Shown: positions 3,201 through 46,018, numbered from the stretch's first letter. The stretch is 64,000 bases of DNA from a virus (IMGVR_UViG_2588253904_000003:12061-76060), one strand, 5' to 3'. Translations and numbers: made by a program. Notes: generated from the letters alone by a model not told the origin.

Positions 3201-4441
3201 AAGCGGCAATGAACAGGCTTTTGAAGATTTTAAGTCCAGGTACATTGCTCTGCTAAGCGACCTAAACAATAATTCCAGTTTTTCAGAAGGATTATCTTAT
3301 GCCACATCAGGTATTGCCCAAGACATTGACAACCTGGAAGCTTCTGCTGCCACCGTCAGCGAAAGCACAGGCAAAATAGCCGCCAACATCGGGGAAGTTA
3401 ACACCAGCGCAGAAACCCTAAGCGGCAGTCTGTCCAATATTGGCGACGCCCTCTCCGGCTTTTCTGAGACGGACAATATCACTGCCGCCGCAGACGCCTT
3501 TTCTAAATTGGGGCAGGCAATCCAATCTGTAGCAGATGCACTGAACATAAGCGAAGACGGTACCATAGGCAGTCTCACAGGCGCACTTAAGTCTTTATGC
3601 GAAATACCCCTTTGCCAAACGGATGATGATAAAAATGGCGGTATTCTGTCTAAATTTCAGGCATTAAAGACTGCTGTCACTGACGTAACAAGCGCCATTT
3701 CCGGCGGTGGTTCCTCCGCCTCAGACAGTGGTGACGGGGGAAATTCCTCAAGTCCAGGTACAAGCTCCGGTGCAGCCGGAAACAGTTCTGGCGGACTGGC
3801 AGGCGCCATTGCCTCCCTGAAATCCGCCGCCACTGATGCATTAGGCGGCAATGGAAATGATGAATCAGAAGGACAAAGCGAAGGCTCCGGCATTATCGCC
3901 CAGTTTGGCCAGCTTAAAAATGCAGTAACCGATACCACGGAAGCCATCGGCAGCGGCGACTCAAAACAGAAGAAAAAATCTAAAGGAAACTCAAAAAATG
4001 GAAATCTGATCAGTTCCATCACAAGTCTTGGAAGCACCACCTCAGAAATTCTTACCGGCGACGGTAATGATGAAGATAAATCAGGCGGCGTAATTGGGCG
4101 GTTTGAACAGTTTAAGGATGTCATCGGTGAAGCCAATGAACATGTAACAGGAATTGCCACAGGGTTACACGATATTGATGGCGAAACTGTAGAATGCACC
4201 ATCAAAGTAAATGTTGAACAAAATGGAGAGCTGCCTGCCTATTCCAAAGGCGTCCTGGCTCCCATGAAGTTGGAAAGCGGTGAATATAAGGCAAAATATG
4301 GACGTGCATTTGCAAAGGGATCCGGAAATTACAAAGGACTTCCCAAATCAGAGAAAAATGCGCTTCGCTCTGAATATGGCCAGCCAGAATTAACCGTATA
4401 TCCTGACGGAACTACAGAACTCACCACACAACCTACCATCA
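292..4441 (+). pseudogene. Tape-measure-like protein of outer element, 5' part (interrupted by prophage)
   Basis: 1383 codons of coiled-coil/helical sequence ending ...SEYGQPELTVYPDGTTELTTQPTI. The ORF-track extension to 4593 is read-through into phage DNA. Confidence 0.8.
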
Positions 4442-4467
4442 CCCCTCAGAATGAAAAAGAGAAAACA

Positions 4468-4492
4468 GAGGAGAGCCGGGCAGGCCCTCCTC
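4468..4492 (-). terminator. Rho-independent terminator ending the phage late operon
   Basis: gaggag..ctcctc stem followed on - strand by a T-rich tract, directly after the last lysis gene. Confidence 0.5.
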
Positions 4493-4499
4493 TTTCCCT

Positions 4500-4748
4500 T
4501 TACATTGACAGCCGGATCTTTTTGGCCGCCGCCTGCTCAATGAGCTGCTTTGCCTCTTCCCTGCTGCCACGCTCAGCAGATACCATGATATAACCGGGCA
4601 TATCTTTGGCCGGTTCCACCTTAAAATCCTTCATTTCTGCCGCTTCCAGGCGCTCCTTCAGCTTTTTTGCATAATCTCCACATGCTGCCGGAAACGTGCC
4701 CGCAATCACCCGGATCGGGGCCTCCTTCGTGCTTTTTGTTTCTGCCAT
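4500..4748 (-). CDS. Small SPOR-like protein
   Basis: 'RVIAGTF...AKKLKERL' pattern; follows the endolysin. Confidence 0.5.
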   Translation of the reverse strand: MAETKSTKEAPIRVIAGTFPAACGDYAKKLKERLEAAEMKDFKVEPAKDMPGYIMVSAERGSREEAKQLIEQAAAKKIRLSM

Positions 4749-4761
4749 TGTGTTTCCCTCC

Positions 4762-6402
4762 TTATGATTTCTTTAAATATTCACTACTGGAAAAGCCCTC
4801 TTTGCCATTGTAGGCAATATAAAGCCATTTCACACCTTCCACCATGGTATAGTAACCATAATTCCGCACCGTTGCCCCTTTGGGGATCTCCGTGATAATA
4901 TTCTCACTCTTCAGCACTCCCGGATGGGTTCTCATGTTCAAGTTGGTTGTGGTCTTATAGGCTCCGGCAATTCCCTTGGCAAAACTCTTTGCCCCCACCG
5001 GCTTCAGGGAAGCATTGCCCGCCGTGGCTCCGTTGGCCACATAGGTATAATATTGGCCGCCTGCATTGCTTGTGTAGGCATACCCACATGAAGCGCCCGG
5101 CCATACAATTTTATACCAACCATTGGCCAGGATCTCCAATACCTCCACAGAGGCTCCTTTGGTCACTCCTCCAATGGATCCGGATGCGGTACTGCTGCCG
5201 GTTCTCACATTCATATTGCTTTTGGCCGTTGCGCTGCCTATTCCCTTGCCTACATAGTTTTTATTGCCTGAGGCCGTTGCTGTGCTCTGAGAAGCTCCTG
5301 AGGCCGTTCCTGAGGCCTTTGAGCCCTTACTCAATGCCATAACTACATGAGAGCTTTCCTTCAGGTAAATGCCGCCCCTCTTTGCGTATGCACTGGATCC
5401 AGTGTGGGCAGCATCCGTGTATGCTTTAAATTTTCCGGTTGCCAGGAGAATGCTTTTCATATTGCCGGTGTAGCCACTGGCGGCAATGCTCAGGCCCGCC
5501 AATATGTAACATGCAAGCACCAGGGAGCTGCAATCAAAATCTCCCTTGGCTCCGGCCACCTTCCGGCCATTGTTCACAATCGCATTAAAGCCCTTCCATC
5601 TGTTAGGCTGAGAATAGCCAAAATTATCATTTTTGCATATCTCCTCCATAATTGCGGCGGCCTTGTCTGCCAGGGTATCATCCAGGCATTCCAGGTAAAC
5701 ATTCCACGGCTTACTGTACCATTCCCGGATGCAGATCTCTTTTGTGGTCTGATCCCCCGGTGTTTTCCCCTGAATTGTTCCGTTTTCGTCAATACTTGCA
5801 TGGCCAATCAATACAGCCATCTGATCACTCCTTTCCTCATAGCCCTTTACTGCTGCATATACCGCATCCCTCCGGGCCATATACTTACAGAAAACTTTGT
5901 CACTTTTCGCTGAAGCATAAAGCGCATCCAACGTCTTTCCACCGGCCGCCCTGATAATCCGGGCAGAGGCTCCGGCCCCGCCCTGGTTCTCAATATCGGC
6001 CATGAAAATAATAGCTGCCGGATCTGTTACTCCCAAATTTTTAATATGGGTACAGTATCCGGTAATATCTTTCAGGGCAAGCGCATCCTGGGCCCGCTTC
6101 CCTTCCGTTGTGCTGAGGGCAGCAGATAACCGGCCCGCCTCTTCCGTTGTGGCCTTCCTGCTGCCCCATGAGGTGCCCTTTGCTGTAATTTCCGTATAAA
6201 GGGCCGCCCCCAATATTTCCTTGCCCTTTTGGGCTCCCAGGGCCTCACAAATCTCTTTCATAAGGCCCAGGGCCCTGCCGCCATGCCACTGGACTCTCCC
6301 AACCGATAAAGCCCCGTTATCGTTCTTATTTACCGATCCATAACCCCCTTCATGGGAAAAAATGATCGGAGCCGCCCTCTCAGCAATTTCCTTCAGATTC
6401 AT
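4762..6402 (-). CDS. Modular endolysin: lysozyme-like domain + NlpC/P60-like domain + two SH3b domains
   Basis: HEGGY..N..D.GA N-terminus; FDCSSLV...HV catalytic motif; two 'NVR/NMR...W' SH3b repeats; next to holin. Confidence 0.85.
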   Translation of the reverse strand: MNLKEIAERAAPIIFSHEGGYGSVNKNDNGALSVGRVQWHGGRALGLMKEICEALGAQKGKEILGAALYTEITAKGTSWGSRKATTEEAGRLSAALSTTEGKRAQDALALKDITGYCTHIKNLGVTDPAAIIFMADIENQGGAGASARIIRAAGGKTLDALYASAKSDKVFCKYMARRDAVYAAVKGYEERSDQMAVLIGHASIDENGTIQGKTPGDQTTKEICIREWYSKPWNVYLECLDDTLADKAAAIMEEICKNDNFGYSQPNRWKGFNAIVNNGRKVAGAKGDFDCSSLVLACYILAGLSIAASGYTGNMKSILLATGKFKAYTDAAHTGSSAYAKRGGIYLKESSHVVMALSKGSKASGTASGASQSTATASGNKNYVGKGIGSATAKSNMNVRTGSSTASGSIGGVTKGASVEVLEILANGWYKIVWPGASCGYAYTSNAGGQYYTYVANGATAGNASLKPVGAKSFAKGIAGAYKTTTNLNMRTHPGVLKSENIITEIPKGATVRNYGYYTMVEGVKWLYIAYNGKEGFSSSEYLKKS

Positions 6403-6691
6403 CCTCTTCCTCCTTTCCCGTTTTGCACAAATCCGGGTATTTCTCCGCTATCTTCCCATATACCCACACCCCGATCAGCACCAGGGGGAGAAACGGCCAC
6501 AGCACCGCCGCCAATAAGGAAATAGCGAAAAAGGAGCAGATGGCGATCAAGCCTTCTCCTGCTCCTTCCGGGTATTCCATGTATTTCTCTTCCTCACTCA
6601 ACTCATTCCATGAGCTGCAAAACAGATATAATAAGGCCATGGCCAATATTACAGCCACAGCCACATAAACAATAAGCAGCGCCTTCCACAC
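6380..6691 (-). CDS. Two-TM membrane protein in lysis cassette
   Basis: Two hydrophobic segments. Confidence 0.6.
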   Translation of the reverse strand: MWKALLIVYVAVAVILAMALLYLFCSSWNELSEEEKYMEYPEGAGEGLIAICSFFAISLLAAVLWPFLPLVLIGVWVYGKIAEKYPDLCKTGKEEEDESEGNC

Positions 6692-6693
6692 TT

Positions 6694-7011
6694 TTATGCC
6701 CCCTTACTGTTATTCATAGCAAACACAGCCGCCTCTATCAGGGTTTCAAGCTGAGCATCCGAAATAGAAATATTTTTGGCTGCAAGAATCTCTTTCAAAA
6801 ACTCCGTAACAATGGCCTTTTTCTCAGCGCCGGATCCTGCCTCCTTATTCATCTGCTCTGCCGCCTCCACGGCCTTGGCCACCCACTTCATAACTCCGGT
6901 GAGCTTCATTTCCTCTGCCCACGTTTTGAGCAGCGGGATCCCGTACCTCATAATGAGCGTTACTGCAATAATCACCACAAGCTCAATAACCTTTAATAAA
7001 ATATTATCCAT
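6694..7011 (-). CDS. Phage holin, LL-H-like
   Basis: N-terminal TM, 'AVEAAEQ...GAEKK...IEAAV' signature. Confidence 0.85.
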   Translation of the reverse strand: MDNILLKVIELVVIIAVTLIMRYGIPLLKTWAEEMKLTGVMKWVAKAVEAAEQMNKEAGSGAEKKAIVTEFLKEILAAKNISISDAQLETLIEAAVFAMNNSKGA

Positions 7012-7025
7012 AGAAATATGCCTCC

Positions 7026-7448
7026 TTATCCTTTTGCCGCCTCAGAGGGCCCTTCCTGGCTCTCTGAGCATGTTTCAGGGCCTCTCATTGCCATATCATG
7101 CACAATGCCGCCCTCCGTGTTTTCTTTGGTTGCTTTTGCCGCATAGGCACAGTATGAGATCGCTTCTCCTACCGTGGCCCCGATCAGGCTGTACAGCGCT
7201 GAGAGATCCGCAAAGTGCCACATTGCGGCCATAGAGTAAAGCTGCACCGCCGTACATGATAGGAAGATATAAGCCAGGGCCACCTTGGAAGCGTTTGGCG
7301 GCTTCTTTTTCGGCCAGTATTCCTCCCGCTTCTGTTTCAGCTCTTCCTCCAATAGCTTCCGCTCTCCCTGGATCTCAATCCTCCTCAGCTTCCGCTCATG
7401 CTCCCTGAGCTCTTCCCTGCTTAGCCTCACCCGGCTCACCTCCCACAT
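7026..7448 (-). CDS. Phage membrane protein
   Basis: Two TM segments, lysis region; start uncertain. Confidence 0.6.
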   Translation of the reverse strand: MWEVSRVRLSREELREHERKLRRIEIQGERKLLEEELKQKREEYWPKKKPPNASKVALAYIFLSCTAVQLYSMAAMWHFADLSALYSLIGATVGEAISYCAYAAKATKENTEGGIVHDMAMRGPETCSESQEGPSEAAKG

Positions 7449-7884
7449 AAAAATCCTTTTCTTCCTGGCACTTATGGTAAATCTTCAGAATATACTCATA
7501 TTCTGCTTCATATACACCGTTGGGATCATTCGTCACCTTCAGCAGCTCCTCATATTTCTCATTCTGCTGTATGATATAATTAAATTCACCCTCAGAGTGC
7601 CTCTGCCCTCTTTGGCATTCGTTGTAAAAATTGAAAATCTCTGCTTTGATATTGTCGGCGGCATCTATCGCCCTTTGTATTGCAAGTTCTTCCTGCCTTT
7701 TGGCAATTTCCTCCTGCTCCTTCCTCAGTTCCTTCATTTCTTCCTTCACACTGGCCATCATTTTGTTGCCGATCCACCCAAAAAGGCTGCTCCATGGATT
7801 GATCTTGATCTTGGATACCTCTATGAAGGTGCCCAGGAAGAGAGCCCCGCCTGAAATAGCCGCCACTATTTCTCCTATGCTCAC
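7396..7884 (-). CDS. Phage membrane-anchored coiled-coil protein (lysis-associated)
   Basis: N-terminal TM, 'KINPWS' motif, coiled coil. Confidence 0.65.
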   Translation of the reverse strand: MSIGEIVAAISGGALFLGTFIEVSKIKINPWSSLFGWIGNKMMASVKEEMKELRKEQEEIAKRQEELAIQRAIDAADNIKAEIFNFYNECQRGQRHSEGEFNYIIQQNEKYEELLKVTNDPNGVYEAEYEYILKIYHKCQEEKDFYVGGEPGEAKQGRAQGA

Positions 7885-8096
7885 TCCTGCTCCTCTCCTT
7901 CCTCTTCATTTTCCGGCCCCTGCACTTTGCAGAAAACGCACCGGGAGCATGGCTCTTGGCTGTATGGCATGTAATAACTTTTACATTCCCCACAATTTCC
8001 ATATTCTTTGCACTCCCGGCTGCACTCTTCCAGTGTCCTCCTGCAATATCCCAGGGCCCTATGAGAGCACCTGAAATTATTCCGCTTCGGCTTCAT
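7881..8096 (-). CDS. Cys-rich small phage protein
   Basis: Multiple CxxC pairs; overlaps its neighbours. Confidence 0.55.
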   Translation of the reverse strand: MKPKRNNFRCSHRALGYCRRTLEECSRECKEYGNCGECKSYYMPYSQEPCSRCVFCKVQGPENEEEGEEQE

Positions 8097-8289
8097 CCAT
8101 TTCCTTCAGCATGGCATTGAGCTCATTTTTCCTGGCGGCCATTCTGTCAGATTCAGCGATCTCCTCAGCGTATTCCTCCACCGTGGCCCGCCCCATTGCG
8201 ATCTTGGTGCCTATGTAGTCCTTTTCTCTCATAAGCTGATCCAATCCTCTGATCTCTGCCTCAATCTGTTCTCTTGTCATTGCTTCCAT
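8077..8289 (-). CDS. Small helical phage protein (possible tail-fibre chaperone)
   Basis: Good RBS; 'DY...KIA' motif; downstream of DGR. Confidence 0.55.
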   Translation of the reverse strand: MEAMTREQIEAEIRGLDQLMREKDYIGTKIAMGRATVEEYAEEIAESDRMAARKNELNAMLKEMDEAEAE

Positions 8290-8304
8290 GTTTTTTCTCC
8301 TTCC

Positions 8305-9519
8305 TTATACTGTTTTAGGGATATATGGGATGTACTCCCAATTTTCTATAAATAGCCGGTTGAAAAGGGCATCCATATTCCTGATAGTGTGGTATGCGTC
8401 CTTTTTCCCGGCAAATCCCCGCCATGATTGATATGCCGCCCTGATCTGCTCATAGCTCATGTGGCCCTCAGCATTCAGCTTGGCAAATTTCTTCAGCTTC
8501 CTTCTTTCCCTTGTTACAGAATCCCGGCATATTCTTTTCACTACCTTCCCGGTATCCGTGAGCAGGAAATGTGTTTTTAAGAATGTGAAGCCCCTGCTGA
8601 GCTTCACAATTTTGGTTTTCTTATCATTGAGCCGTATTCCCAATGATTCATATATTTTTCGCACCTCTTCCAGTATCTCCTTCAGGTATTCCTTATCAAT
8701 GTGAATGATATATGAATCATCCATATACCTGGCATATGGCCGGATCCCTTTTTCGTCCTTCACATAATGATCCACTTTATCAGGATAAGAAACGGCACAT
8801 ATTTGGCAGACTTCACTCCCTAATCCCAGGCCCCTGGCATACTCTTCACCGTACTCCATGGCCGCCTCTTTAAATTGTGCCATTTCCTTCATTTTCTCCT
8901 CAGCAAAGGCATCAATAAATTGCTCTGCAAGGTGAATGATCCTCTGATCCGTGAATTTGCTCCGGATCTGCTCCTTCATTTTGTCATGTGGGATACTTGC
9001 AAAATAATCTTTCAGATCTATTTGCAGGATATAGCCCTCATTTCCATATTTTGCATAATGCTCCTGCAAATGAAGCGTGATCCGGTCAATGGCATGGCTG
9101 ATTCCCATACCCTTCCTGGATGCTCCGTTGTCATATATCAGACTATTGGAGAGTACCGGCATGAGTGCATTTTGTGAGAGGCTCTTCTGAGGCACACGCT
9201 CAGAGAAATGCACACTCTGAATATGCCTCAGCTTTCCCCTCTCCACCAAATCAAAGGCAATGAATCCCTTTCGGACATCCTCACCATTGATCAGTGCATT
9301 ATGAGTTTTACAAAGGTTTCTGCTCAGCTCGGATCTGTACCGCTGCACACTGGCTTTTCACCCCACTCCCTTCCTGGCATCCTTGTATGCCTGGTAAAGT
9401 GAGTTATAATCTGCCACCCGTTCAAAATTATCATATTCGGATAGCCTCTCCCTCCGGTGTGCCTCCCTGGCCTCTCTCCTTCGCTGAGCTCTGCCCGCTC
9501 TTCTTTCTTCACTTGTCAT
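8305..9519 (-). pseudogene. DGR reverse transcriptase with an in-frame TGA at codon 54 (9358-9360)
   Basis: Motifs IDLKDYFASIPH, GLGLGSEVCQ, RYMDD. Frame reads from ATG 9519: MTSEERR...KGVG*KASVQRY. Confidence 0.88.
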
Positions 9520-9804
9520 ATAAAATTGTGCCCATCTCCTCCTTGTACGGTATTTGTGCCCCTAACCGCATAATGGTATGGGTATGAAATGCACCTCTGC
9601 ACCTTCTTTTCAGCTCCCTTCCGATTTCTGCACCATGCAAGCAGCGTACACCCACCCAAAACAAGCAAAAACCACCTCTCTGAGCACATGAGAGGCGGCA
9701 AGGTCATTTACACTTTTTTCAAAGTGACGGTCATCCACTCCTTCCTCTACCTGATACAGATTTCTGCCTTTTACAGCGTACTTTGTCGGATCGTTTATGG
9801 TAGT

Positions 9805-9928
9805 GAATCAGACGGGCACCCGGAGAGCGTTGGAGCAACTGTTGTTGTTGGCATTGCCATTGTTGTTGACATTGCAGGCATTGGTAGAATTGCCCGCACA
9901 CACAGACAGCAGCCACCAGTTGGCCCGG
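9805..9928 (-). ncRNA. DGR template repeat (TR)
   Basis: 124 bp with 12 AAY codons; differs from both VRs only at TR adenines; lies between avd and RT. Confidence 0.95.
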
Positions 9929-9960
9929 TGCGAAAAATACAGCGGATAACCGATATTTCA

Positions 9961-10368
9961 TTATTTTCTTTTAACTATTTTCGTGTTGTCCTTCCAATTC
10001 TTCATCTTTCCCTCTTCCTTCAGCATTAAATTCAGGAGCGGATCAAATCGGTTCCAATCCACCGGCAAAGTAGTGGCCAGGTAATTTATGAGATCATAAA
10101 TATCCCGCAAGGTGTCAATGGCCTCCTGGGCCTTTGCCTTCCTCTTCTCCACTAATTCCTCCGTGGTGCTCCATATTCTGTTAGCTGCCCGGATCTGAGT
10201 ATAGAGCTTGTGGCACAGCGCACACATTGGCTTTGCAAATATATCCCGCCACCCTTTAGGCACTATATTGGTATTCCATACCAACCTTGTGGCCTCTGCT
10301 CTTATTTCCTCCGCAAGATCCAACACATCCAATTTCGAGGCGCTCCTGAGCCTTGCCAATACACTCAT
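9961..10368 (-). CDS. avd: DGR accessory variability determinant (Avd-like)
   Basis: 135-aa helical protein between target gene and TR, the canonical position. Confidence 0.8.
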   Translation of the reverse strand: MSVLARLRSASKLDVLDLAEEIRAEATRLVWNTNIVPKGWRDIFAKPMCALCHKLYTQIRAANRIWSTTEELVEKRKAKAQEAIDTLRDIYDLINYLATTLPVDWNRFDPLLNLMLKEEGKMKNWKDNTKIVKRK

Positions 10369-10395
10369 GCTCTTTCCTCACTTTCGCAAATATAC

Positions 10396-10418
10396 CCCGC
10401 CCCTGGGAAGGGGGCGGG
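10396..10418 (-). promoter_or_regulatory. DGR hairpin downstream of VR1
   Basis: cccgcccc/ggggcggg 8-bp stem just after the target stop codon. Confidence 0.75.
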
Positions 10419-10430
10419 ATTGATCCATGA

Positions 10431-11390
10431 TTATTCCGTGATTCGGAAGCAGACGGGCACCCGGAGAGCGTAGGAGCAACTGTAGCTGTCGGCAATGCCA
10501 TTGCCGCTGACATAGCAGGCATAGGTAGAATAGCCCGCACACACAGACAGCAGCCACCAGTAGGCCCGGCTTCCTCCGTCACCGGCCCCCTTGATCCGAT
10601 TCTTCCAACTGTTCGCAAAAATCGGATACTGCACCGCCTGGCCTTCTCCCCATGGCTTTGTTGCCCAAATCAGTGAGCCAAACACTTCATATTCACACGG
10701 GATCCACAGTTTCCCTAAATCCTGCCACCCCCATGAGGTTGAATCATTCAGCTTTCCGGATGCGGAATATCTCTGCTCTAAAAGGAACCGCTTGGAGCTG
10801 ATAACTGCCCGCACCTCTGCCGGGAGCTTTGCCTCTAATCCGGCCAGGAAGCTCTTCACGGTTGACTTGTTATAGGGATAAGGATCCGCTGAGGTTCCGT
10901 TGTTATCGTTTGAAGTGAACCATTGCACAGTATCCGGGTAACAATCTTTTGAGATCCAATCAATATGCCACCCTACCTCCTGATCACAGCACCGTGTATA
11001 TGTATTTATACCGGCAATCTGCATTTTGATCAGATAATTCCCCATGTAAATGGGTATATAGTCCTCTACATGCAGGCCATCAATGTTATGGGCTGCAAGC
11101 CTGGTTTTAATCCACCGCCACGGATCAGAAAATCCGGCAATCTCCTCAGCAAATTCCACTGTAAGATCCCGTCCCTCATAGGTGCGATCTGCTGCCTCTA
11201 TGGCATAATTGGTATGCTTATTCTCAAAATTGATCTGCTCTGCACCGTATTCATCCCCTTCCTGGGTGTACGGTGTTACGTCATTATAGCTCTTGGTGCC
11301 ATCCTCGTTCTGCACCTCTCCAAACTTGCGATCTGCCGCAAGCTCTTTGTTGATCACGTCATCCACATAATCTGTTTTTAATACTGACAT
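10431..11390 (-). CDS. DGR target 1: receptor-binding/tail protein with C-terminal CLec-type (DUF6273-like) domain
   Basis: Last gene of tail module; 'LWIPCEYEVFG...WWLLS' motif; contains VR1. Confidence 0.9.
   Translation of the reverse strand: MSVLKTDYVDDVINKELAADRKFGEVQNEDGTKSYNDVTPYTQEGDEYGAEQINFENKHTNYAIEAADRTYEGRDLTVEFAEEIAGFSDPWRWIKTRLAAHNIDGLHVEDYIPIYMGNYLIKMQIAGINTYTRCCDQEVGWHIDWISKDCYPDTVQWFTSNDNNGTSADPYPYNKSTVKSFLAGLEAKLPAEVRAVISSKRFLLEQRYSASGKLNDSTSWGWQDLGKLWIPCEYEVFGSLIWATKPWGEGQAVQYPIFANSWKNRIKGAGDGGSRAYWWLLSVCAGYSTYACYVSGNGIADSYSCSYALRVPVCFRITE
10446..10569 (-). repeat. DGR variable repeat VR1
   Basis: 13 mismatches to TR over 124 bp, all at TR adenines. Confidence 0.95.
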
Positions 11391-11399
11391 AATGCCCTC

Positions 11400-14403: not shown

Positions 14404-14413
14404 ACTGCATCAC

Positions 14414-34312: not shown

Positions 34313-34324
34313 TGTTTGCGCCTC

Positions 34325-34537: not shown

Positions 34538-34576
34538 TTTTATTCCTCCTTAAAATTTGCTTGCTTATCCCCTTAT

Positions 34577-34606: not shown

Positions 34607-34614
34607 GATATTGA

Positions 34615-35238: not shown

Positions 35239-35269
35239 ATGTTTCTTATCCTCCTTATATTTTCTCAGG

Positions 35270-35584: not shown

Positions 35585-35596
35585 CCCGCTGCCCTC

Positions 35597-37532: not shown

Positions 37533-37542
37533 GCCTTTCCTC

Positions 37543-38158: not shown

Positions 38159-38666
38159 TGAGCACCTCCCTGAGTTCCTTCACAATCTCCTCCTCCGCAT
38201 AGGCCGCCTGATCTTCTGAATAAATCACCGCCATATTTGCTATGGTGATAGGAATGCCCCACTCCTTGGCCTTCAGGAGCTCTCCTTTCATTCCCTCTGA
38301 AATGTTGGTGAAGATCCTCAGCTCCCCGCAATCCTTCAGGAGCTCCAATCCAATCCTCATGCCTGCTGCCCGCTGTGATTTCACATCATCATTGAGCACC
38401 TGGGCATAGAACAAATGAGGGCAAATGGGGATCTTTCCCTCTTCAATCACTGTCATGCAAAAGAATTTTGCAAGCTCCAAATTTGTGGCCTTATCTCCCC
38501 TGCTGCCATATTGTGAGCATATATAAACCCTCTCCATGCTCTCCTCTTTTTCCAGTTCCCTGAGCTTCTCCTCTGCCTCATGGTTGCTCATGCTGTACTT
38601 GGGCCCTCTCAGCCTCAGCAGCTCCTCAGCCGCCTGCCCTGCTGCCCTCATGGTTTTCTCTGTCAT
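38151..38666 (-). CDS. DUF4406/nucleoside deoxyribosyltransferase-like protein
   Basis: 'VYICS.Y...PICPHL...SEGM..E'. Confidence 0.65.
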   Translation of the reverse strand: MTEKTMRAAGQAAEELLRLRGPKYSMSNHEAEEKLRELEKEESMERVYICSQYGSRGDKATNLELAKFFCMTVIEEGKIPICPHLFYAQVLNDDVKSQRAAGMRIGLELLKDCGELRIFTNISEGMKGELLKAKEWGIPITIANMAVIYSEDQAAYAEEEIVKELREVLNG

Positions 38667-38680
38667 TGCTTCTCTCCTTC

Positions 38681-38941
38681 CTACCAACACGGCCTCACCG
38701 TGTAGGGATCCATAAAATCCAATTCATCCGGATCGGCATATGCTATTTGCACCCGGATTCCTGCCCGCACACATTCCACAATGGAATGTACCTCTGTAAT
38801 GCTCCGGTAATTGTCAGCAATGGCCTCCATCACCGCATCGGCCACCTTCTCTGCTGCCTCCGTTACCTTCTCCCGCTCTCCTTCCATATTGGCCAGTACC
38901 GCCTCCATGGTTCTCCTTCTTACTTCTCTGTATTCTTCCAA
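38681..38941 (-). CDS. Hypothetical phage protein
   Basis: Operon context. Confidence 0.5.
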   Translation of the reverse strand: MEEYREVRRRTMEAVLANMEGEREKVTEAAEKVADAVMEAIADNYRSITEVHSIVECVRAGIRVQIAYADPDELDFMDPYTVRPCW

Positions 38942-39396
38942 CTCTCCAACTCCTTCCTGAGTTCTGATTGCATTACATTCTCATATTCGTGGTGATCGTC
39001 TTTCAGGGTGTAGGTGTGGCCCTTCCCCTTTTCAATCAGCATTTTCCACAGCTCAGCATTCTTCACCGGCTTCCCCTTTGCATTGATCCACCCGCTCTCC
39101 TGCCATTCCTTTGGCCACTCCTGCTGCATGGAGATCAAAATGTGGCTGCACTTGGTAAATACTAGGGCTCTGCATGGTTTTTTCAGAATGTAAAAGGCAT
39201 TGATCATAGCCATAAGGTTCCCCTGGGTTTCTGTACCCTCTTTCACATGCACAAATCCCTGCCGGGTATCCAGGCGATCTCCTCTTTTGCATTCCACCAA
39301 CCACATGGCCACCCCATCCCTCCTGGCCGGGCCTCTCCATGTGCTCTCAATGAATATGCTCACCTCATGCATCCCCTGAATCACCTCCTGGATCAA
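38920..39396 (-). CDS. RNase H-like protein
   Basis: 'W...W...GW..AKGKPVKNAELW'. Confidence 0.75.
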   Translation of the reverse strand: MIQEVIQGMHEVSIFIESTWRGPARRDGVAMWLVECKRGDRLDTRQGFVHVKEGTETQGNLMAMINAFYILKKPCRALVFTKCSHILISMQQEWPKEWQESGWINAKGKPVKNAELWKMLIEKGKGHTYTLKDDHHEYENVMQSELRKELESWKNTEK

Positions 39397-40147
39397 TCTT
39401 TCGCATGGTGTAGTGCTGATATGGGAGCCCCGTCACCGGGTTTTCACCATTCACAAGAGAATCCTTCACAATGTACCAACCTTTTTCCGGCTTTGGCTCC
39501 TTCCTCCACCTCCTGCTGTGAATCACTTCCTTTTGCGGCTGAGGTATGATCAGATTCCTACTCCTGGAATATGAGCAGCCCTCCTCCTCTTCCTTGCTTT
39601 CTTTTTTCACTATGTACTCAGCAAGATCCTCAAACTCCCCATCCTCATACAGCGGGTGGAAACTCTTGGATCCATATTGCCAAAACTTCAGCACCAGTTT
39701 TTTGGTGTTCAAATTCTGATCCGCTATATCCTCAATGATCAGGTGGTGGTGACATGCTCCTTGCTTCCCTCTCTCCGTGACAGCTATCCACTTGAAGGGG
39801 ATCCCCGCCTTCTTGTATACCTTCCTCATATCAGACAAGAATTTTCTCAGTTGCTTCTTTGCCTCCTTAAAGGAGCCCGGCCTCTGCTCTTTCTTATAGC
39901 TCAGAATTAAATGCCAATCACCCTCATGGAAATTGGCCAGGATCAACCTCTGCACCTTTTTCTCTCTGTTCGTCTTATTCTGCCGATCTATGTCCTCAGG
40001 TGTCCTCTTTCTTTTTGGCCCCCTCTTCACTCCTGGGGCCCCATAATTACCCGGATAGTATTTTGCAATCTGCTTCACCCATCCCAGGTCATATATTTTT
40101 TTCCAGTACAAACCGTATATCACCCCCATCTTTAATATCTTGATCAA
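39365..40147 (-). CDS. HUH-type rolling-circle replication initiator-like protein
   Basis: 'HLILSY', HUH 'HHHLII', 'LAEYIVK'; start uncertain. Confidence 0.7.
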   Translation of the reverse strand: MIKILKMGVIYGLYWKKIYDLGWVKQIAKYYPGNYGAPGVKRGPKRKRTPEDIDRQNKTNREKKVQRLILANFHEGDWHLILSYKKEQRPGSFKEAKKQLRKFLSDMRKVYKKAGIPFKWIAVTERGKQGACHHHLIIEDIADQNLNTKKLVLKFWQYGSKSFHPLYEDGEFEDLAEYIVKKESKEEEEGCSYSRSRNLIIPQPQKEVIHSRRWRKEPKPEKGWYIVKDSLVNGENPVTGLPYQHYTMRKIDPGGDSGDA

Positions 40148-40191
40148 GTGTTTAACAAGGCCGAAAAGCCTTGATTTTAGCGCCTTTTCAC

Positions 40192-40290
40192 TTGACTTGG
40201 ATGCCCAAAAGTGATATACTGTTTTTAGGTGTAGTATGTCCTTAGGGCATATGTCGGGAGCAGATTTCTCAGATCTGCTCCCATTTTTTT
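40192..40290 (+). ncRNA. Putative antisense RNA (promoter + terminator) upstream of phage rep
   Basis: TTGACT-N17-TATACT at 40192-40220; 10-bp stem 40256-40282 followed by a T run. Confidence 0.6.
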
Positions 40291-40301
40291 ATGTAAACCA
40301 T

Positions 40302-40460
40302 TTACATCACCGCCACCTTCCTGGCAGGCATGGCCGGATCCGGATGGTTCTCCTTCTCCTGGCTCTCCACCCTTTTCCGGGCCACCTGGATGCAGGCTTT
40401 GGTGAAGCGTTCCTCATACCCTTCTGAGAGGGTGATCTTCACCTTTACCTCCCGCCTCAT
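40302..40460 (-). CDS. Small phage protein (52 aa)
   Basis: MRREVKVKITLSEGYEERFTKAC...; ATGA overlap with upstream ORF. Confidence 0.55.
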   Translation of the reverse strand: MRREVKVKITLSEGYEERFTKACIQVARKRVESQEKENHPDPAMPARKVAVM

Positions 40461-40621
40461 GCCATGGCCACCTCCTTCTCTGCTTCTTTTGCAAGCTGAA
40501 TACCAATGATAATGCTTTTAACATGTTGCCTCTCATTGGGTGACAGCATTCCATAAAGCTCTGCAAATTCCTTTGCATCGTCCATCTCGGTTCTCTGAAT
40601 CGGTTTCTCTTTCACTTTCAT
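40457..40621 (-). CDS. Small phage protein (54 aa)
   Basis: MKVKEKPIQRTEMDDAKEFAELY...; RBS ggagg. Confidence 0.55.
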   Translation of the reverse strand: MKVKEKPIQRTEMDDAKEFAELYGMLSPNERQHVKSIIIGIQLAKEAEKEVAMA

Positions 40622-40633
40622 GCCTTTTCCCTC

Positions 40634-41158
40634 CTATCTGCTCTCTAATAATGGTGTAAAGCTCTTTTCCTGAAGGCCTGCCATCATGGCCCACATTCTC
40701 TCTAATCGCTCCATTTCTTCCAGTGTTGGAAGCTCAGCCTCCTCTCCTGAATCCCCAAAAAGCCGGTGCTTTTGTATGAATGCCTCAAAGAGGAGCTCCT
40801 GCTCTTCCTTCAGCAAATCCCGGTAAAACTCAAATTCGATCCGGATCTGTATCTCCTGGGCTTTTGTGCATTCCACAATGAGAATACTCCTGGAGCCCTG
40901 CCCATGCCTCCGGTGGTACTGCCCTTCTTTGTCATTCCTGGCCCGGTATACAATTTGAGAGAGCAACCGCCGCTCAAACTCTCCCCGGTATTTGATTTCA
41001 TACCGGCTCACCCGATCCTCTTCAAGCTCCAACTGATCCACCCCATACTTTGCCATGAGTTGCTTCAGTTTCCTCTCTGCTCCTTCCCTCTCTCCTCCCA
41101 CACCACGCTCTGCAAGGGCCTTCAGCTTTTGCAGGAGAGCCTTTTGCTTCTCATTCAA
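40634..41158 (-). CDS. DUF2786-like protein
   Basis: 'KLKALAERGVGGE...A...L..LMAKYG'. Confidence 0.6.
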   Translation of the reverse strand: MNEKQKALLQKLKALAERGVGGEREGAERKLKQLMAKYGVDQLELEEDRVSRYEIKYRGEFERRLLSQIVYRARNDKEGQYHRRHGQGSRSILIVECTKAQEIQIRIEFEFYRDLLKEEQELLFEAFIQKHRLFGDSGEEAELPTLEEMERLERMWAMMAGLQEKSFTPLLESR

Positions 41159-41657
41159 TCTCTTTCCCTCCTGCTGCCCCTATTGCTTCAAATTCCTCCT
41201 GCATTCCTGCGATCAAGCTATCATCTAATGAATTGAGAAGGGCCACGGCCTCTCCATGCCTTCCTTCAGTGATAAGCTGCACCGCCTTCTCTTCTACCTC
41301 TGCCCGGTGATCCATTTCTGCCTGCATACGTTTGATCAGGCCTATTTTTATATCAATTTTCCCCGTTGCTTCATAAAATGGGAGCCTATTTCCACATACC
41401 GGGCACCCTGCACCCGGCTCCACTTTGTAGAGCACCCACTGATCTCCCTGGGGCGCTTCCTCCTGCCCTTCTTTAGTGCATATTGCCATCACATAATCTC
41501 CATTAAAGCTGCCGTTGTGAGAGTATCTGAGAAAATTTCCTACCTCTGCCAGGCTCAGCTTCCCCTCCTCTTTTTCCAATACCAATATACTGTTATCATG
41601 TGCATCCCGATCCCATACCGCCTCAATTTTCTCTGCTATTACTTCATTCTTTTTCAT
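41151..41657 (-). CDS. Hypothetical phage protein
   Basis: CPVCG motif; probable start MKKNE. Confidence 0.55.
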   Translation of the reverse strand: MKKNEVIAEKIEAVWDRDAHDNSILVLEKEEGKLSLAEVGNFLRYSHNGSFNGDYVMAICTKEGQEEAPQGDQWVLYKVEPGAGCPVCGNRLPFYEATGKIDIKIGLIKRMQAEMDHRAEVEEKAVQLITEGRHGEAVALLNSLDDSLIAGMQEEFEAIGAAGGKEIE

Positions 41658-41661
41658 CCCC

Positions 41662-42042
41662 TTATGCCTCCTCAATCTCAATTCTAATTACTCTGTCTGT
41701 ATATCTGCCCCTTCTCTGCCCTGGCCCGATCCGAAACTCTAACCCCATATCATTCAGAATGGTTATGGCTCTTCTTTCCTCTTCCTCTGAATATGGATTG
41801 AAAAACTTAGATTCCTTCCCGGATACTTCCGGGTATCCTAAAAGAATATTCAGGGTTTTCCCGTTGTCCTTTGTGTGCTCAAATCCTGCTTTTCTCAGGG
41901 CCTCCCTGATTTCATCAACCCTGATCTTCCTGGCCGCCGCTCTCACCGTTTTCATAAAACTTTTTTCCACTTCCTGGAGCTTGCTTTCATCCACCTTCCT
42001 GATTGCGTTCAGGAGCTCCTCAATTTGTTCACTTCTCCTCAT
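41662..42042 (-). CDS. Hypothetical phage protein
   Basis: Operon context. Confidence 0.5.
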   Translation of the reverse strand: MRRSEQIEELLNAIRKVDESKLQEVEKSFMKTVRAAARKIRVDEIREALRKAGFEHTKDNGKTLNILLGYPEVSGKESKFFNPYSEEEERRAITILNDMGLEFRIGPGQRRGRYTDRVIRIEIEEA

Positions 42043-42053
42043 GGCTCTCCTCC

Positions 42054-42626
42054 TCAATCCATTGCCTTTTCAAGAATTTGCTTCAGCTCTTCTCGGTGTG
42101 TAAAAAGCATTTTCTTACTTGTTTCTTTGTCGATCTCCCCATTCGTATAGGTTGTAATGCTATTGAGCAGCTCTTCCATGGCCTCAAATTCCTTTTTGTA
42201 TGCCTTATCAAATGCCGCCTCTAATTCTGCATTTTCCGGCTCAGCCTGGTATGCTTCATCCGCTTTATTGGCGGCGGCCTCCAACTCCTCAAATTTTTCC
42301 AGTTTCTTCAGCAATCCCTTCCCGCTTTTCTTCTCCCGTTCAAATCTGAAAAGAAAATCCTCTCCATCGTTGGTACAGCATCCGAAATAGTCATCTGTGC
42401 GGGTGAAATGGTACTCCACCCCATAAAACTGCTTTACCGCCAATTTGAAGATCTCAAATTGTGCAAATAACCGATCAATGTCTTTTCTCAGCCTCTTGTA
42501 TTTCTCCGGCTCCTGCCACTGGCTTGTATGGCTCTTTTCTTCAAGGTAAAAATCTAATGCCTTTACCGTTTCAACCATCTGCCCGCCAAACTCCGTTTTT
42601 TCAAATCTTGCTTTCACTAATTTCAT
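42054..42626 (-). CDS. Hypothetical early phage protein
   Basis: First gene divergent from the repressor; RBS ggaggg. Confidence 0.6.
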   Translation of the reverse strand: MKLVKARFEKTEFGGQMVETVKALDFYLEEKSHTSQWQEPEKYKRLRKDIDRLFAQFEIFKLAVKQFYGVEYHFTRTDDYFGCCTNDGEDFLFRFEREKKSGKGLLKKLEKFEELEAAANKADEAYQAEPENAELEAAFDKAYKKEFEAMEELLNSITTYTNGEIDKETSKKMLFTHREELKQILEKAMD

Positions 42627-42759
42627 GGCTTATCCCTCCATAATTATTTCATTGTGTTTATAGAATACCACAATGTGTTTAAAAGATCAATAGCTTTTCC
42701 TTGAAAATTATTGCAATGTGTTATTTTTCGTGTTATATTATCCTCAGGAGGTGATTTTT

Positions 42760-43227
42760 TTGGATATTGGGGATAGAATTAAGCTCCTCAGAAAAAGGCT
42801 AAATATGAATCAGGCTGACTTTGCAACCCCTCTCGGCCTCAGACAGTCCACCATCGGAAATTATGAGAGCGGATCTAGGGGGATAAGTGATGCAACCATA
42901 TTGGCCATATGCAGAGAATATGGCGCTAGTGAGGAATGGCTTCGCACCGGCTCCGGTGAAATGTTTGCCACTGTTCCGGCCACCGTAGTTTCTGAATTGG
43001 CCAGGGAGCACGATCTTGACGATATGGATCAGGCCATTATTGCTGAGTATTTGAAATTAGATAAGGGGAGCCGGGCTGTATTGAAAGATTACATAAAAAG
43101 AGTGTACCTTGCTTCAGATCCGGATGCTGCCATTGATAGAGAAGTGGCTGCATACCGCAAAGAATTGGAAGCTGAAAAAGGGGAAAAATCATCAGCCTTA
43201 GACACTATAAGAGAAAAAGAGGCTTAG
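42760..43227 (+). CDS. XRE-family phage repressor
   Basis: 'IGDRIKLLRK...QADFA...QSTIGNYESG...WLRTGSGEMF'; probable TTG start after aggaggtg. Confidence 0.88.
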   Translation: MDIGDRIKLLRKRLNMNQADFATPLGLRQSTIGNYESGSRGISDATILAICREYGASEEWLRTGSGEMFATVPATVVSELAREHDLDDMDQAIIAEYLKLDKGSRAVLKDYIKRVYLASDPDAAIDREVAAYRKELEAEKGEKSSALDTIREKEA

Positions 43228-43245
43228 AATAGGGGGGATTGCTTA

Positions 43246-43824
43246 TTGAACGATAAAGCATATTTTATTATTACCCTTCTTTTCGGATGGTGTGGCGCTC
43301 ACAAATTTATCCAAAAGAAGTACGGTATGGGCCTTCTGTATCTTGTTACTTTCGGATTGTTCGGACTTGGATGGGCCGCTGACTGCTTCCGGGCCCTGCT
43401 GCCGGTGCTCCGTCATAAAAATGGTGCTCCTGCTGCCAGTGCTCAGCATGATAACATTGTGGATCAGCTCTGCCTCTCCCTGGATCCTGAATTTGTTTCC
43501 TTCGTTCTGCCCATGATTAAGGCAGGGCTTTCATGGAATAGAATTGAGCAGGCTTACCGCTCTTCTTTTCCTGATTCAGAATGTGAGGATCTTGCCCTCA
43601 GAATCCAGTATGTTGAAAGTTATTACTCAAATTCTACTGAGATCGCAAGCCTGAAGGAATGCGGGGCCTCAAAGTATCGGATCATTTCAATGCCCGATCA
43701 TGAATTATGTGATATTTGTAAGAGATTCAAAGGCCGTACTTTTCCGGTATCCTCTGCAAGGATCGGCTACAACTGCCCGCCCTTCCACCTTGGATGCCGG
43801 TGTACCACCGTTATAGAAGAATAA
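43246..43824 (+). CDS. TM2-domain membrane protein with C-terminal gp7/MuF-like Cys motif
   Basis: 'FGWCGAHKF...GLLYL.TFGLFGLGW..D'; 'CDIC...PPFHLGCRC'. Confidence 0.75.
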   Translation: MNDKAYFIITLLFGWCGAHKFIQKKYGMGLLYLVTFGLFGLGWAADCFRALLPVLRHKNGAPAASAQHDNIVDQLCLSLDPEFVSFVLPMIKAGLSWNRIEQAYRSSFPDSECEDLALRIQYVESYYSNSTEIASLKECGASKYRIISMPDHELCDICKRFKGRTFPVSSARIGYNCPPFHLGCRCTTVIEE

Positions 43825-43957
43825 TAAAAGCCCCGGTTTTCACCAGGGCCCCATGAGGTAATGCTCATGTATTCCGCAAAATATATTGTAGCATTATCTC
43901 CGGGAGCTTTCAATCAGATTCCGGGCATTTTTATGCCCTTTTTTAGGAGATAATAGC

Positions 43958-45538
43958 ATGAATTTTGGAATATATTGCAGAAAATCATATTTTGTTGATA
44001 CTTCAGAGAGCACACAGATGCAGCTCTCCATGTGTAAAAATCATATAGAGCAGCGCTTTCCTGAGGTTGATTCCCTCGCATTCTATGAAGATGATGGTTA
44101 TGTGCGCTCAGATATGGATCGGCCCGGCATGAACCAACTGAAGGAAGATATTGCAGCAGGCCTCATTGATTGTGTGGTTATTTACAAAATAGATCGGGTG
44201 TGCTCCGATATGATGGACTTTTGCACCTTCTACTCTTACCTGAAGGAGCATGAGATCAAATTTATCACTGTTCAGGATGGCATTGATACCACCACACCCC
44301 TGGGAGAGGCCATGATGTACTTGGCTGTAATCTTTTCCGGCCTGGAAGTTCGCACAGATTCCCTCAGGATCACCGATAATATGAACCACCTGGCGGCAAG
44401 TGGCTTTTGGTGTGGGGGCCGGGCTCCCGTTGGCTATGATATTGCCACTATTGACCTGGGGGCAAAATCCCACAAAACGCTCACATTCAATCAGGAAGAG
44501 ATCGACTATAAAAACAATCTTATTGACATATTCTTAGAGAACGGCTTCAGCCTTCAGAGCATGGAAACATATTGCAAAAACAACCGGATCACCTCTTTAA
44601 AAGGCAGCTTCCTCTCTACAACTCAGTTATACAACCTTTTCACCTCTCCTCATTGTGTTCAGGATACTCCGGCCATGTATGACTATTTTGAAGCTAAAGG
44701 CTGCATGATTGATGAAAATTCCCCCCGTGAGAAGTGGGATGGCCAACATGGGATCATTGTATATGGCCGCACCATGGAAAAGCGGGTGAACGGCAAAAAG
44801 CGCCACTCCCTGGCACCGCCTGAGAAGTGGCGGGTGAGTATCGGCTTTCATAAGCCATATATGACGGATCAGCGCTTCTTTTCCATTATGGCCCAATTCG
44901 GGCATAATACTTTTTCAAAGGTTGCAAAGTATGATCTGCCGCTCCTGAAGGGTGTGCTCCGGTGCAAGTGTGGCCGCACCATGAGCATGAGCCGCAAGCA
45001 AAAAGTGGATGGCTCTGTTTCCACCTGGTACTATTGCCCCAAACGCATGAGGGCCGGTGCTGAGGCTTGCGACATGCGGCAAATTAAGGCCGATCTACTG
45101 GATGGGAAGGTGTTGGACGTGTTCAAAGAAATACAGCACAACCCGGCCACCGTCAAAAAATACCTGAAGGACGGGAAAAAGCCTGCAAGGGATTCCTCTG
45201 CCTCTGTCCGGGCCCAAATGGAAACATGCCAGGAAAAGATCGGGAAGCTCACCGCCGCCCTGGCCGTGAATAATGAATCTGCTGCTGCAAAGTATATTAT
45301 AGGGGAGATTGAAAAACTTGATATAGAATATAATACCCTCAAAAGCAAGCTGCTGAATTTTGCCGCTGAGGAAAGACGGGCCGCCGCCCAAATGAAGAGC
45401 GCTATGGAGAAAAGAGAGGCCATCATTCGGCTTTTGGATAATTTTGATAGTTTCACAGCAAATGAGAGGAATGAGATCGCCAAAAATGTGCTGAAGGAAT
45501 GCACCTGGGATGGGGAAACGCTTTTTATTGTGCTTTAG
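43958..45538 (+). CDS. Large serine recombinase (prophage integrase)
   Basis: 'YCRKS', 'DRPGM', 'YKIDR', Zn-ribbon CKCG...C...C; adjacent to att core. Confidence 0.92.
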   Translation: MNFGIYCRKSYFVDTSESTQMQLSMCKNHIEQRFPEVDSLAFYEDDGYVRSDMDRPGMNQLKEDIAAGLIDCVVIYKIDRVCSDMMDFCTFYSYLKEHEIKFITVQDGIDTTTPLGEAMMYLAVIFSGLEVRTDSLRITDNMNHLAASGFWCGGRAPVGYDIATIDLGAKSHKTLTFNQEEIDYKNNLIDIFLENGFSLQSMETYCKNNRITSLKGSFLSTTQLYNLFTSPHCVQDTPAMYDYFEAKGCMIDENSPREKWDGQHGIIVYGRTMEKRVNGKKRHSLAPPEKWRVSIGFHKPYMTDQRFFSIMAQFGHNTFSKVAKYDLPLLKGVLRCKCGRTMSMSRKQKVDGSVSTWYYCPKRMRAGAEACDMRQIKADLLDGKVLDVFKEIQHNPATVKKYLKDGKKPARDSSASVRAQMETCQEKIGKLTAALAVNNESAAAKYIIGEIEKLDIEYNTLKSKLLNFAAEERRAAAQMKSAMEKREAIIRLLDNFDSFTANERNEIAKNVLKECTWDGETLFIVL

Positions 45539-45565
45539 TTTTCCCTGAATTATTTTGATACCCTC

Positions 45566-46018
45566 AGCGATCTTCCGAAAGGAACCGTTATTTTTAATGA
45601 AGCACAGACAAAAGAAATCTTCCAAAATAAAGCGGATACTATGGGCAGCGTTTCTGCAAGCGGCTCTACAGGACAAAGCATTCCCGGAAAACCCACTCTT
45701 CCTCCGCCTCAGCGCCCTGCCTTTTTGGTGCAGCAGGAATTGCAGGAAGAATGCCTTGCAAAAACAGGCAACATTACGGATAAAATTTTATCTCCCCTAA
45801 ATATGCTTTCCCGCAATTGGAAAGACATGGCCGGCCTGACAGGAAACATAAATCATATCAATCACAATGGACAAAACCAGTCTGTCAATGTAGGCGGCAT
45901 CAATATCACCTGTCCCGGCGTTACCAGTCAGGAAGTGGCCAGACAGTTAGGGACAGAATTAAATCATATTTTCAGCGGATTCCATAACTATGCAGACCAG
46001 CAAAGCAGAGTCAGATAA
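45566..46018 (+). pseudogene. Tape-measure-like protein of outer element, 3' part
   Basis: SDLPKGTVIFNEAQTKEIFQNKADT in frame with ORF 45641-46018 and with the 5' part after excision. Confidence 0.85.

Follow-up and report, generated by a model that had tools for sequence, protein, structure and literature searches.

Serine recombinases can lodge mobile elements inside genes and disrupt them, as SPbeta does in spsM, skin in sigK, and phi10403S in comK. The satellites named HE-PICIs, whose integrases are of the tyrosine type, provide another form of nesting. They are small, occupy 14 recurrent sites in the late genes of prophages, and are co-oriented with the late genes of their helpers (PMC10111431, in whose accessible text the word 'serine' is absent, as is 'tape measure' from the main text). 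Other full prophages lie within prophages of E. coli, where the sections of PMC8112680 at hand describe internal attB sites as copies of the host chromosomal attB, with 87% identity to yecE, beside effector loci. Finally, the accessible part of PMC10083194 calls a large serine recombinase (LSR) multi-targeting when one 90%-identity cluster is found in more than 3 target-gene clusters, and reports DUF4368 in 63% of the LSRs of the multi-targeting clade. Here, we analyse a window of 64,000 nucleotides (the whole stretch IMGVR_UViG_2588253904_000003:12061-76060, which is G000:C1:491254-555253 of a mouse-gut Lachnospiraceae genome, on a contig of 1.47 Mb) in which a temperate phage with a large serine integrase (the inner prophage) interrupts the tape-measure gene of a second phage-like element (the outer element). 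We consider, with a probability of about 0.68, that this is a recent and reversible insertion at a secondary site by an integrase of relaxed specificity, which probably disables the tails of the outer element and whose excision would restore the gene without being an evolved switch.

Results

An exact insertion in a tape-measure gene

The interrupted gene and its insert are made of the following parts, in window coordinates.

292..4441, plus strand: N-terminal part (1383 codons) of the interrupted tape-measure gene of the outer element, colinear with the intact 1803-amino-acid (aa) open reading frame (ORF) of G042 and 1370/1370 identical to P0144
4439..4441, no strand: attL core, TC (4439-4440) and, by coincidence, one more shared letter, A; homology to the sister prophage of G007 begins at 4442
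4442..45563, minus strand for most genes: inner prophage, by PHROGs and Pfam matches; aligns to the G007 prophage
43958..45538, plus strand: large serine integrase, 526 aa; Pfam Resolvase 1.2e-18, Recombinase 1.5e-4, Zn_ribbon_recom 6.1e-10; phrog_95 integrase 3.1e-71
45564..45566, no strand: attR core, TC (45564-45565), again with the shared A; the integrase ends of G002 and G007 are homologous up to 45565
45566..46018, plus strand: C-terminal 150 codons of the outer tape-measure gene and its stop, 95% identical to G042 and 150/150 identical to P0144

The junction letters and coordinates are those given in a preliminary description of this DNA, with TCA at both 4439-4441 and 45564-45566: the left junction reads ...ACCTACCA-TCA(4439-4441)-CCCCTCAGAATG and the right one ...TTTTGATACCC-TCA(45564-45566)-GCGATCTT. 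The left ORF (292-4593, frame 1) encodes a coiled-coil-rich protein up to ...ELTTQPTI, followed by 50 unrelated insert codons and a stop at 4591-4593, and the right frame, open from 45539, reads FSLNYFDTL-SDLPKGTVIFNEAQ... down to a stop at 46016-46018. Joining the two at TCA yields the continuous protein of about 1533 aa that had been proposed (1383 + 150 = 1533 residues), and a 1533-aa form of it, P0155, exists. The core shared between the junctions of this genome and the sister prophage of G007 is the dinucleotide TC, and the third letter A is therefore a coincidence of this attB. Counted core to core, the insertion adds 41,125 bp. The attP arms are imperfectly inverted, as also anticipated, with 7/10 complementary mirror positions between -15..-6 and +6..+15 and 14/25 over the full arms (hand counts). 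The locus thus shows the 2-bp shared core without target duplication and the imperfectly symmetric attP that are expected of large serine integrases, and, at the level of the sequence, exact excision restores the interrupted ORF. As for the integrase gene itself, its stop codon TAG (45536-45538, 25 nt ahead of the attR core) is in frame with the C-terminal fragment of the tape measure, open from 45539, and read-through would fuse both, which is probably a coincidence.

The tape-measure identity of the gene is supported by its homologues and by its position directly before PMBT24-like baseplate genes. The region spanning the site (the last 354 residues) has homologues at 38-54% identity, often with PF10145, and those that are named are called phage tail tape measure protein.

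Intact alleles, the empty site, and the joined attP

When searched against 101 related genomes, the 150-aa C-terminal piece matched nine, G000 included. A congeneric genome, G042, encodes on contig C91 an uninterrupted 1803-aa ORF within an 1806-aa open frame. Its alignment with the left flank of the insertion covers 991 nt at 95.0% and ends at window 4441; that with the right flank covers 1007 nt at 95.6% and starts at window 45559. The two tape-measure protein matches abut in G042 between positions 5078 and 5079 of L014, and the letters at the site are CCTACCATCAGCGATCTTCCG. The intact protein P0144 (1520 aa, on 94 contigs) begins 13 residues into the tape-measure protein and equals both fragments at 1370/1370 and 150/150 residues; neither half of the interrupted gene has an amino-acid change relative to this intact allele. 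Uninterrupted alleles are therefore at hand in G042:C91, P0144, and P0155. The empty site predicted from the nested form, ACCATCAGCGAT, is exact in G042 and in 4/4 metagenomes from mouse gut or feces, where a differing allele would have spoken against the insertion. The match at the tape-measure junction is, by sequence comparison, far beyond chance.

The joined attP was seen directly in X6, L046, and L053. All four att forms are accordingly at hand: G000 provides attL and attR, and other samples provide attB and attP. Exact attP, attR, and attL patterns gave no match in viral_contigs, nor did a degenerate attB/attL pattern in metagenome_contigs.

The nested and empty forms in natural populations

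Coverage of attL in sequencing runs was assessed with words sampled across the 800 bases that span it. Their share reached 1.00 solely in X1-X3, the runs marked as possible source of the assembly. It was 0.90-0.94 in 11 other runs (X4-X14, from eight studies, ten listed as 'DNA?' and one guessed to be RNA) and 0.18-0.56 in six runs recorded as RNA. Four of the 11 runs, metagenomes of mouse gut or feces from four studies, were compared with the window as contigs, which drop rare variants and show the presence of the empty form, not the absence of the nested one. All four tape-measure contigs, which show 0, 0, 5, and 2 differing letters in about 1 kb, part from the window after 4441 and run on as GCGATCTTCCGAAAGGAACCGTTATTTTTA, i.e., the empty attB, with a continuation that begins GCGATCTTCCGAAAGG... 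across the four studies. No contig in the 4 metagenomes bridges 4441/4442. The contigs of the phage side start at 4434-4439 with other sequence ahead of them: in X6 this is the integrase-proximal phage end, i.e., attP; for X5, an ATPase gene is read in antisense (...DRIIVGEVRG); X9 has a motif similar to that of X5 (agreement 0.72); and X7 has two listed loose-end contexts, one being the consensus of two contigs at 0.68 agreement.

The interrupted tape-measure form was not found in the other 67 genomes of the genus or in 400 further genomes of the family, and a family-wide DNA search with the attR stretch returned this genome only (1/401). Neither the 68 genus genomes nor the 14 metagenome integrase loci and the 4 metagenomes yielded a second tape-measure insertion. 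The interrupted state, found in 1/68 genus genomes and 0/4 metagenomes, lacks the conservation expected of a regulatory switch.

Some sequences end close to the site. P0125 consists of three foreign residues and the 150-aa piece. Two calls of 125 aa, P0141 and P0140, come from short contigs and have a boundary within a few codons of the site. At G056:C16:90790-90799 the contig breaks off on the upstream side, 9 nt short of the homologous serine codon; a partner contig for this G056:C16 end was looked for and not found. These boundaries could be more insertions or assembly breaks. A 159-aa cluster (P0130/P0131) was considered as a mark of recurrent insertion at the homologous point and rejected: its motif is internal to larger tape-measure frames in related loci (L057, L058, L059, L061, as well as L056 and L062, with the DLPK form), and the disruptions seen there lie elsewhere.

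The integrase lineage usually targets a secretion ATPase gene

The Resolvase, Recombinase, and Zn_ribbon_recom matches of the integrase all pass the curated cut-offs, as expected of a large serine recombinase, and DUF4368 was not found among its Pfam matches at E <= 0.01. A search of 68 genus genomes, G000 among them, gave matches at E <= 1e-60 in 10 (G000 counted). The integrases of G002, G007, and G107 are 93, 93, and 85% identical to it and all adjoin a T2SSE ATPase gene. Beyond the end of their homology one reads the antisense of a type II/IV secretion ATPase, cut after ...ASLRMRP. G007 has this gene split into 170795-171592 and 210212-210607, two fragments 38.6 kb apart, and in G107 the ATPase gene lies directly downstream of a 223-aa ORF. 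The usual target codons are those of RP and D, with the cut between them, in a cpaF-like T2SSE ATPase gene, just before DRxxVGEVRG. A scan of metagenomes for the integrase gave 14 loci, 11 of them with a readable integrase-side junction: 6/11 are of ATPase type (L042, L043, L047, L048, L050, L052), 2/11 are attP (L046, L053), and 3/11 are at other sites (L044, L045, L051). The target in L045 is a hybrid histidine-kinase gene, and the flanks of L044 and L051 are too short to name. Among viral_contigs, the integrase has relatives at 56-61% only. The preliminary description had proposed a search for related integrases that use the tape-measure site; none was found in the genomes and loci searched, and integrases 85-94% identical to this one usually lie in the T2SSE ATPase gene. 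With three named targets (T2SSE ATPase, tape measure, and hybrid histidine kinase) and two unnameable distinct flanks (L044, L051), the integrase cluster tends towards multi-targeting by the definition given in the available part of PMC10083194.

The ATPase gene of G000 itself (contig C2, G000:C2:10665-11861; Pfam T2SSE 4.1e-55) is intact and unoccupied. L042 and L043 have a 94% identical integrase and a right arm identical to the ATPase site of G000 over the ~78 nt of flank shown, so that an ATPase site of the G000 type is used in nature, yet empty here. The attP is nearly unchanged between the phages of G000 and G007, which differ there at 2 of about 50 nt. When TC sites are scored with a right-arm matrix derived from eight arms of ATPase type, L042 (the G000 site sequence itself) among them, the ATPase site of G000 ranks 1 of 534,515, a rank that is partly circular because this very sequence is among the eight arms. 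The tape-measure right arm ranks 3377 (0.63%) under the same matrix, and T+9, C+11, and A+14 are common to 12/12 right arms.

The integrase belongs to the P0003 cluster (352 members, one of them recorded from Parablautia intestinalis), whose alleles are a patchwork from recombination and whose members have different blocks of the 31 positions that distinguish the G000 integrase from the three ATPase-targeting ones. P0166 has the first 17 of these diagnostic positions (24-201), P0156 agrees at 11 of the 31, mostly between 180 and 236, and L042/L043, seated in the ATPase gene, have positions 263-348 and 395. The integrase allele is a mosaic. Integrases of the common allele are also found at non-ATPase sites (L044, L045, L051).

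A separate observation concerns the host gene: the cpaF-like T2SSE ATPase gene is repeatedly struck by this phage lineage (G007:C87:170795-210607 and six metagenome loci), which may amount to a recurrent knock-out or switch of a pilus or secretion ATPase.

The inner prophage

The inner prophage encodes the following genes, identified with PHROGs down to the repressor.

27886-29157: large terminase
25148-26710: portal
23925-25142: minor head
21787-22638: major head
18827-19330: tail chaperone
14804-18385: the prophage's own tape measure, 1193 aa
12163-14403: tail
35597-36979: methyltransferase
42718-43227: repressor, XRE-type
4762-6402: endolysin
6694-7011: holin
8305..11390, minus strand: diversity-generating retroelement, with reverse transcriptase, template and variable repeats
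8305-9348: reverse transcriptase of the retroelement
9805-9928: template repeat, 124 nt
10446-10569: variable repeat
10431-11390: DUF6273 gene, whose 3' end holds the variable repeat

Since lysis, tail, tape-measure, head, portal, terminase, repressor, and integrase genes are all encoded, the element looks like a complete temperate siphophage. The prophage of G007 aligns with 35,628/41,124 of its nucleotides (87%) at a mean identity of 93.7%. All mismatches between the retroelement repeats (13/13) are at T on the plus strand of the template, i.e., at A on the coding strand.

The outer element and its neighbours

Without the insert, the outer element spans ~25 kb, from roughly 478.8 to 545.2 kb of G000:C1. 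Its left part lies at about 478.8-491.5 kb (L016:7500-20000, L030) and the rest is window 292-53921 minus the insert; host genes, including a tRNA U5-methyltransferase and a chemotaxis receptor, precede it on the left. The first two genes, for a GmrSD-like protein and a sigma factor, lie on the minus strand. Next comes an 812-aa protein that matches Pfam RdRP (6.5e-16) and, by tblastn, SPbeta yonO as well as polymerases of Thomasclavelia and Enterocloster phages. Past this polymerase come ORFs of 351, 304, and 267 aa, the first being the largest between the polymerase and the tape measure. Atlas leads, to be taken as leads only, associate the 267-aa ORF with YomU/Tube clusters (0.98) and the 351-aa ORF with a zinc-ribbon cluster (0.90). 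Then follow a holin, a GH25 lysin, three small ORFs, the tape measure, baseplate and fibre genes, and a tyrosine integrase. The window holds the last of these.

46051..52370, plus strand: distal tail and baseplate genes of the outer element; tblastn to PMBT24, phrog_1887 tail protein, DUF5048
46051-46308, 46341-47558, 47564-48493, 48493-50319, 50279-50917, 51021-51350, 51350-51670, 51741-52370, plus strand: the eight distal tail/baseplate genes
52836..53921, minus strand: tyrosine integrase at the right end of the outer element, Pfam Phage_integrase 1.1e-33

The distal genes are in the same order in G042, with 89-98% aa identity for 7/8 and 55% for the last (51741-52370). Three of them match Enterocloster phage PMBT24 by tblastn, all just after the tape-measure gene of that phage, where two are annotated as baseplate hub proteins and the middle one as hypothetical. 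PMBT24 was tried as a guide to the limits of the outer element and set aside, as its overlap with this region is limited to the polymerase, a recombinase, and three baseplate genes.

No terminase, portal, or capsid gene was found in the outer element, and no PMBT24-like head gene anywhere in the G000 genome. Its genes therefore describe a head-less tail-and-lysis element, which could be either tailocin-like or a stable remnant. It has the tube, tape-measure, baseplate, and lysis genes of an F-type tailocin and lacks head and packaging genes, with the 351- and 304-aa ORFs being without firm function; a complete SPbeta-like phage would exceed 100 kb, against the ~25 kb seen here between host genes on the left and the integrase on the right. 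The head-less order, including the run from the polymerase to the lysis genes, recurs in G030 (66-94% aa identity in shared genes), in G025, and in G060. The last of these copies is without a tape-measure gene, which indicates that some copies are decaying. The outer element may represent a new tailocin-like type of locus; no literature linking tailocins and YonO was found. To its right lies a separate small element (window 54954-62391) with a helix-turn-helix protein, FtsK/SpoIIIE, Rep_OBD and a helicase, and a Tn916-type tyrosine integrase, so that three mobile elements are side by side in this region.

Discussion

Origin and consequences of the insertion

The preliminary description had proposed a serine-integrase prophage inside the tape-measure gene of another phage-like element, a claim borne out by the exact junctions and by the attB and attP found in nature. 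We propose that the attP of the inner phage (...TTTTGATACCC-TC-ACCCCTCAGAATG...) recombined with a TC-centred site in the tape-measure gene through its large serine integrase. This would have been a recent, opportunistic integration at a secondary site, the main one being the RP and D codons of the cpaF-like T2SSE ATPase gene. The C-termini of tape-measure proteins are needed for tail assembly, and the integrated state, which removes the last 150 residues, would on this basis probably block the assembly of the outer element's tails. Upon induction, the integrase and a phage directionality factor would excise the prophage and restore the gene exactly; such factors have no family model of general use, and no candidate for one was picked out in this prophage. 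As the insertion is exact and conservative, the frame would be recovered on excision. Such recovery is what conservative serine recombination yields in general, and would be a by-product, not an evolved switch. It had also been suggested that the arrangement serves either to disable a resident tail element or to couple tail production to induction. What stands of this functional reading is the exact and frame-restorable nesting. A dedicated arrangement, be it parasitism of the tail element or an evolved switch, is not supported, given that the usual target of the lineage is the ATPase gene and that the interrupted state is not conserved.

A number of observations weigh against a recent, opportunistic event. 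The tape-measure site agrees with ATPase attB sites at 17-19/44 arm positions (mean over the genome 11.1-11.5, sd 2.9), and 5,229 to 18,132 other TC sites match the ATPase attB equally well or better, which leaves it in the top 1-3.4%. The likeness is real but weak and does not explain the choice of site; similarity alone gives no account of why a better ATPase site is empty. We had considered that the phage took the next-best site and dropped this argument, since neither the similarity of both arms nor the right-arm matrix singles out the tape-measure site. The site lies just before a peptide, SDLPKGTVIFNE, that is conserved among tape-measure proteins at 40-50% identity, and this could be the kind of target that an integrase evolves to use. 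In addition, comparison with the three ATPase-targeting integrases gives 31 differing positions, of which 30 fall in residues 24-395. These residues make up the catalytic and DNA-binding parts, in which the three are almost identical, and a change of preference in the G000 integrase is possible. Finally, the failure to see attL in metagenomes is no proof of absence, because contigs drop rare variants, and further interrupted copies may exist behind the contig or ORF boundaries at or near the tape-measure site in P0125, P0141, and G056:C16.

Several of these points would fit an integrase that has been retargeted, its mosaic allele preferring the conserved tape-measure motif, landing in SPbeta-like tail elements and disarming them in an antagonism of phage against element. 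The 31 allele-specific substitutions, concentrated where ATPase-targeting integrases are nearly identical, the emptiness of the best ATPase site of the genome, the target beside a conserved peptide, and the weak overall likeness of the two attB types all go in this direction. We nevertheless find such retargeting unlikely: attP is almost the same in both phages, every segment of the allele recurs in other members of the cluster, including L042/L043 seated in the ATPase gene, integrases of the common allele occupy non-ATPase sites as well, and a second tape-measure insertion was not found in the genus genomes, metagenome loci, and metagenomes searched. The extended form of this idea, in which the retargeted allele homes into and reversibly disarms a whole undescribed class of head-less tailocin-like elements with a YonO polymerase, whose tails would be gated by excision of the parasite, is in our view slightly more doubtful still. 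An evolved excision switch, akin to skin in sigK or SPbeta in spsM, would have the outer tails made only upon excision of the inner prophage. It would agree with the exact frame-restoring junctions, with two halves free of amino-acid change, and with an integrase co-oriented with the interrupted gene. Yet the zero divergence fits a recent event equally well, the interrupted state is unconserved (the identical intact allele is on 94 contigs and the empty site in G042 and 4/4 metagenomes), the same phage lineage sits in other genes elsewhere, and the inner element is a full lytic-capable phage, whose excision normally comes with cell death, so that we regard a switch as improbable. Even less credible is a chimeric assembly that joined a phage contig into the tape-measure gene. 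The nested form was indeed seen only in this assembly and its possible source runs, but its junctions are the reciprocal products of an attP and an attB seen independently, with the same TC core, the source runs carry all the sampled attL words, and the contig is 1.47 Mb long. The reading we retain remains the recent and reversible insertion at a secondary site.

Significance and comparison with known systems

The locus offers a clean natural case of a phage serine integrase that uses a site in a structural gene of another element while its preferred site in the host is free. This bears on the true specificity of serine integrases, which are tools of genome engineering, on the interference between prophages, and on how split phage genes are read, since the broken tape measure is here not a sign of decay. 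The same region brings to light a compact tail and lysis element, head-less and SPbeta-like, that encodes an RNA polymerase of its own, is present in several Lachnospiraceae, and may be a new type of tailocin locus.

Nesting as such is already known, as far as the accessible parts of the two articles go, from prophages within prophages (PMC8112680) and from satellites in late genes (PMC10111431). No report of a complete serine-integrase phage in a tape-measure gene was found in the literature searched, which did not cover subscription journals and supplements, and the site lists of PMC10111431 and target tables of PMC10083194 may include tape-measure or T2SSE targets. Judging from the text available for HE-PICIs (PMC10111431), these share with our locus a mobile element in a late structural gene of a prophage-like element and the expectation that expression of this gene waits for excision. 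Unlike them, the insert is here a complete 41-kb phage with its own terminase, portal, capsid, tape-measure, and lysis genes, it uses a serine integrase, it occurs once instead of at a recurrent site, and the bulk of it is oriented the opposite way. The E. coli case, as presented in the sections of PMC8112680 at hand, is similar in having a full prophage inside another, often defective, one, and differs in the site, which is here within a structural gene and is not a copy of the ATPase attB (17-19/44). Like the multi-targeting LSRs in the accessible part of PMC10083194, the integrase belongs to one 90%-identity cluster found in unrelated genes, with a degenerate motif around a fixed core dinucleotide; in contrast to that clade, DUF4368 was not found among its Pfam matches, the T2SSE ATPase clearly dominates, and only three targets are nameable.

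The outer element resembles SPbeta-like phages and PMBT24 (OQ326496) in its YonO-type RNA polymerase, its YomU-type tube, its long tape measure followed by homologous baseplate genes, its sigma factor, and its DUF262/GmrSD-like gene. Unlike these phages of 100-134 kb, it has ~25 kb and is without terminase, portal, capsid, and replication genes. The inner prophage, in turn, resembles SPbeta, skin, and phi10403S, with a Resolvase, Recombinase, and Zn-ribbon integrase, an insertion within an ORF at a 2-bp core, and a predicted exact restoration of the gene on excision. The differences are that the interrupted state is here unconserved and no developmental control is evident, unlike skin in sigK and SPbeta in spsM, and that the interrupted gene belongs, in contrast to all three, not to the host but to another mobile element.

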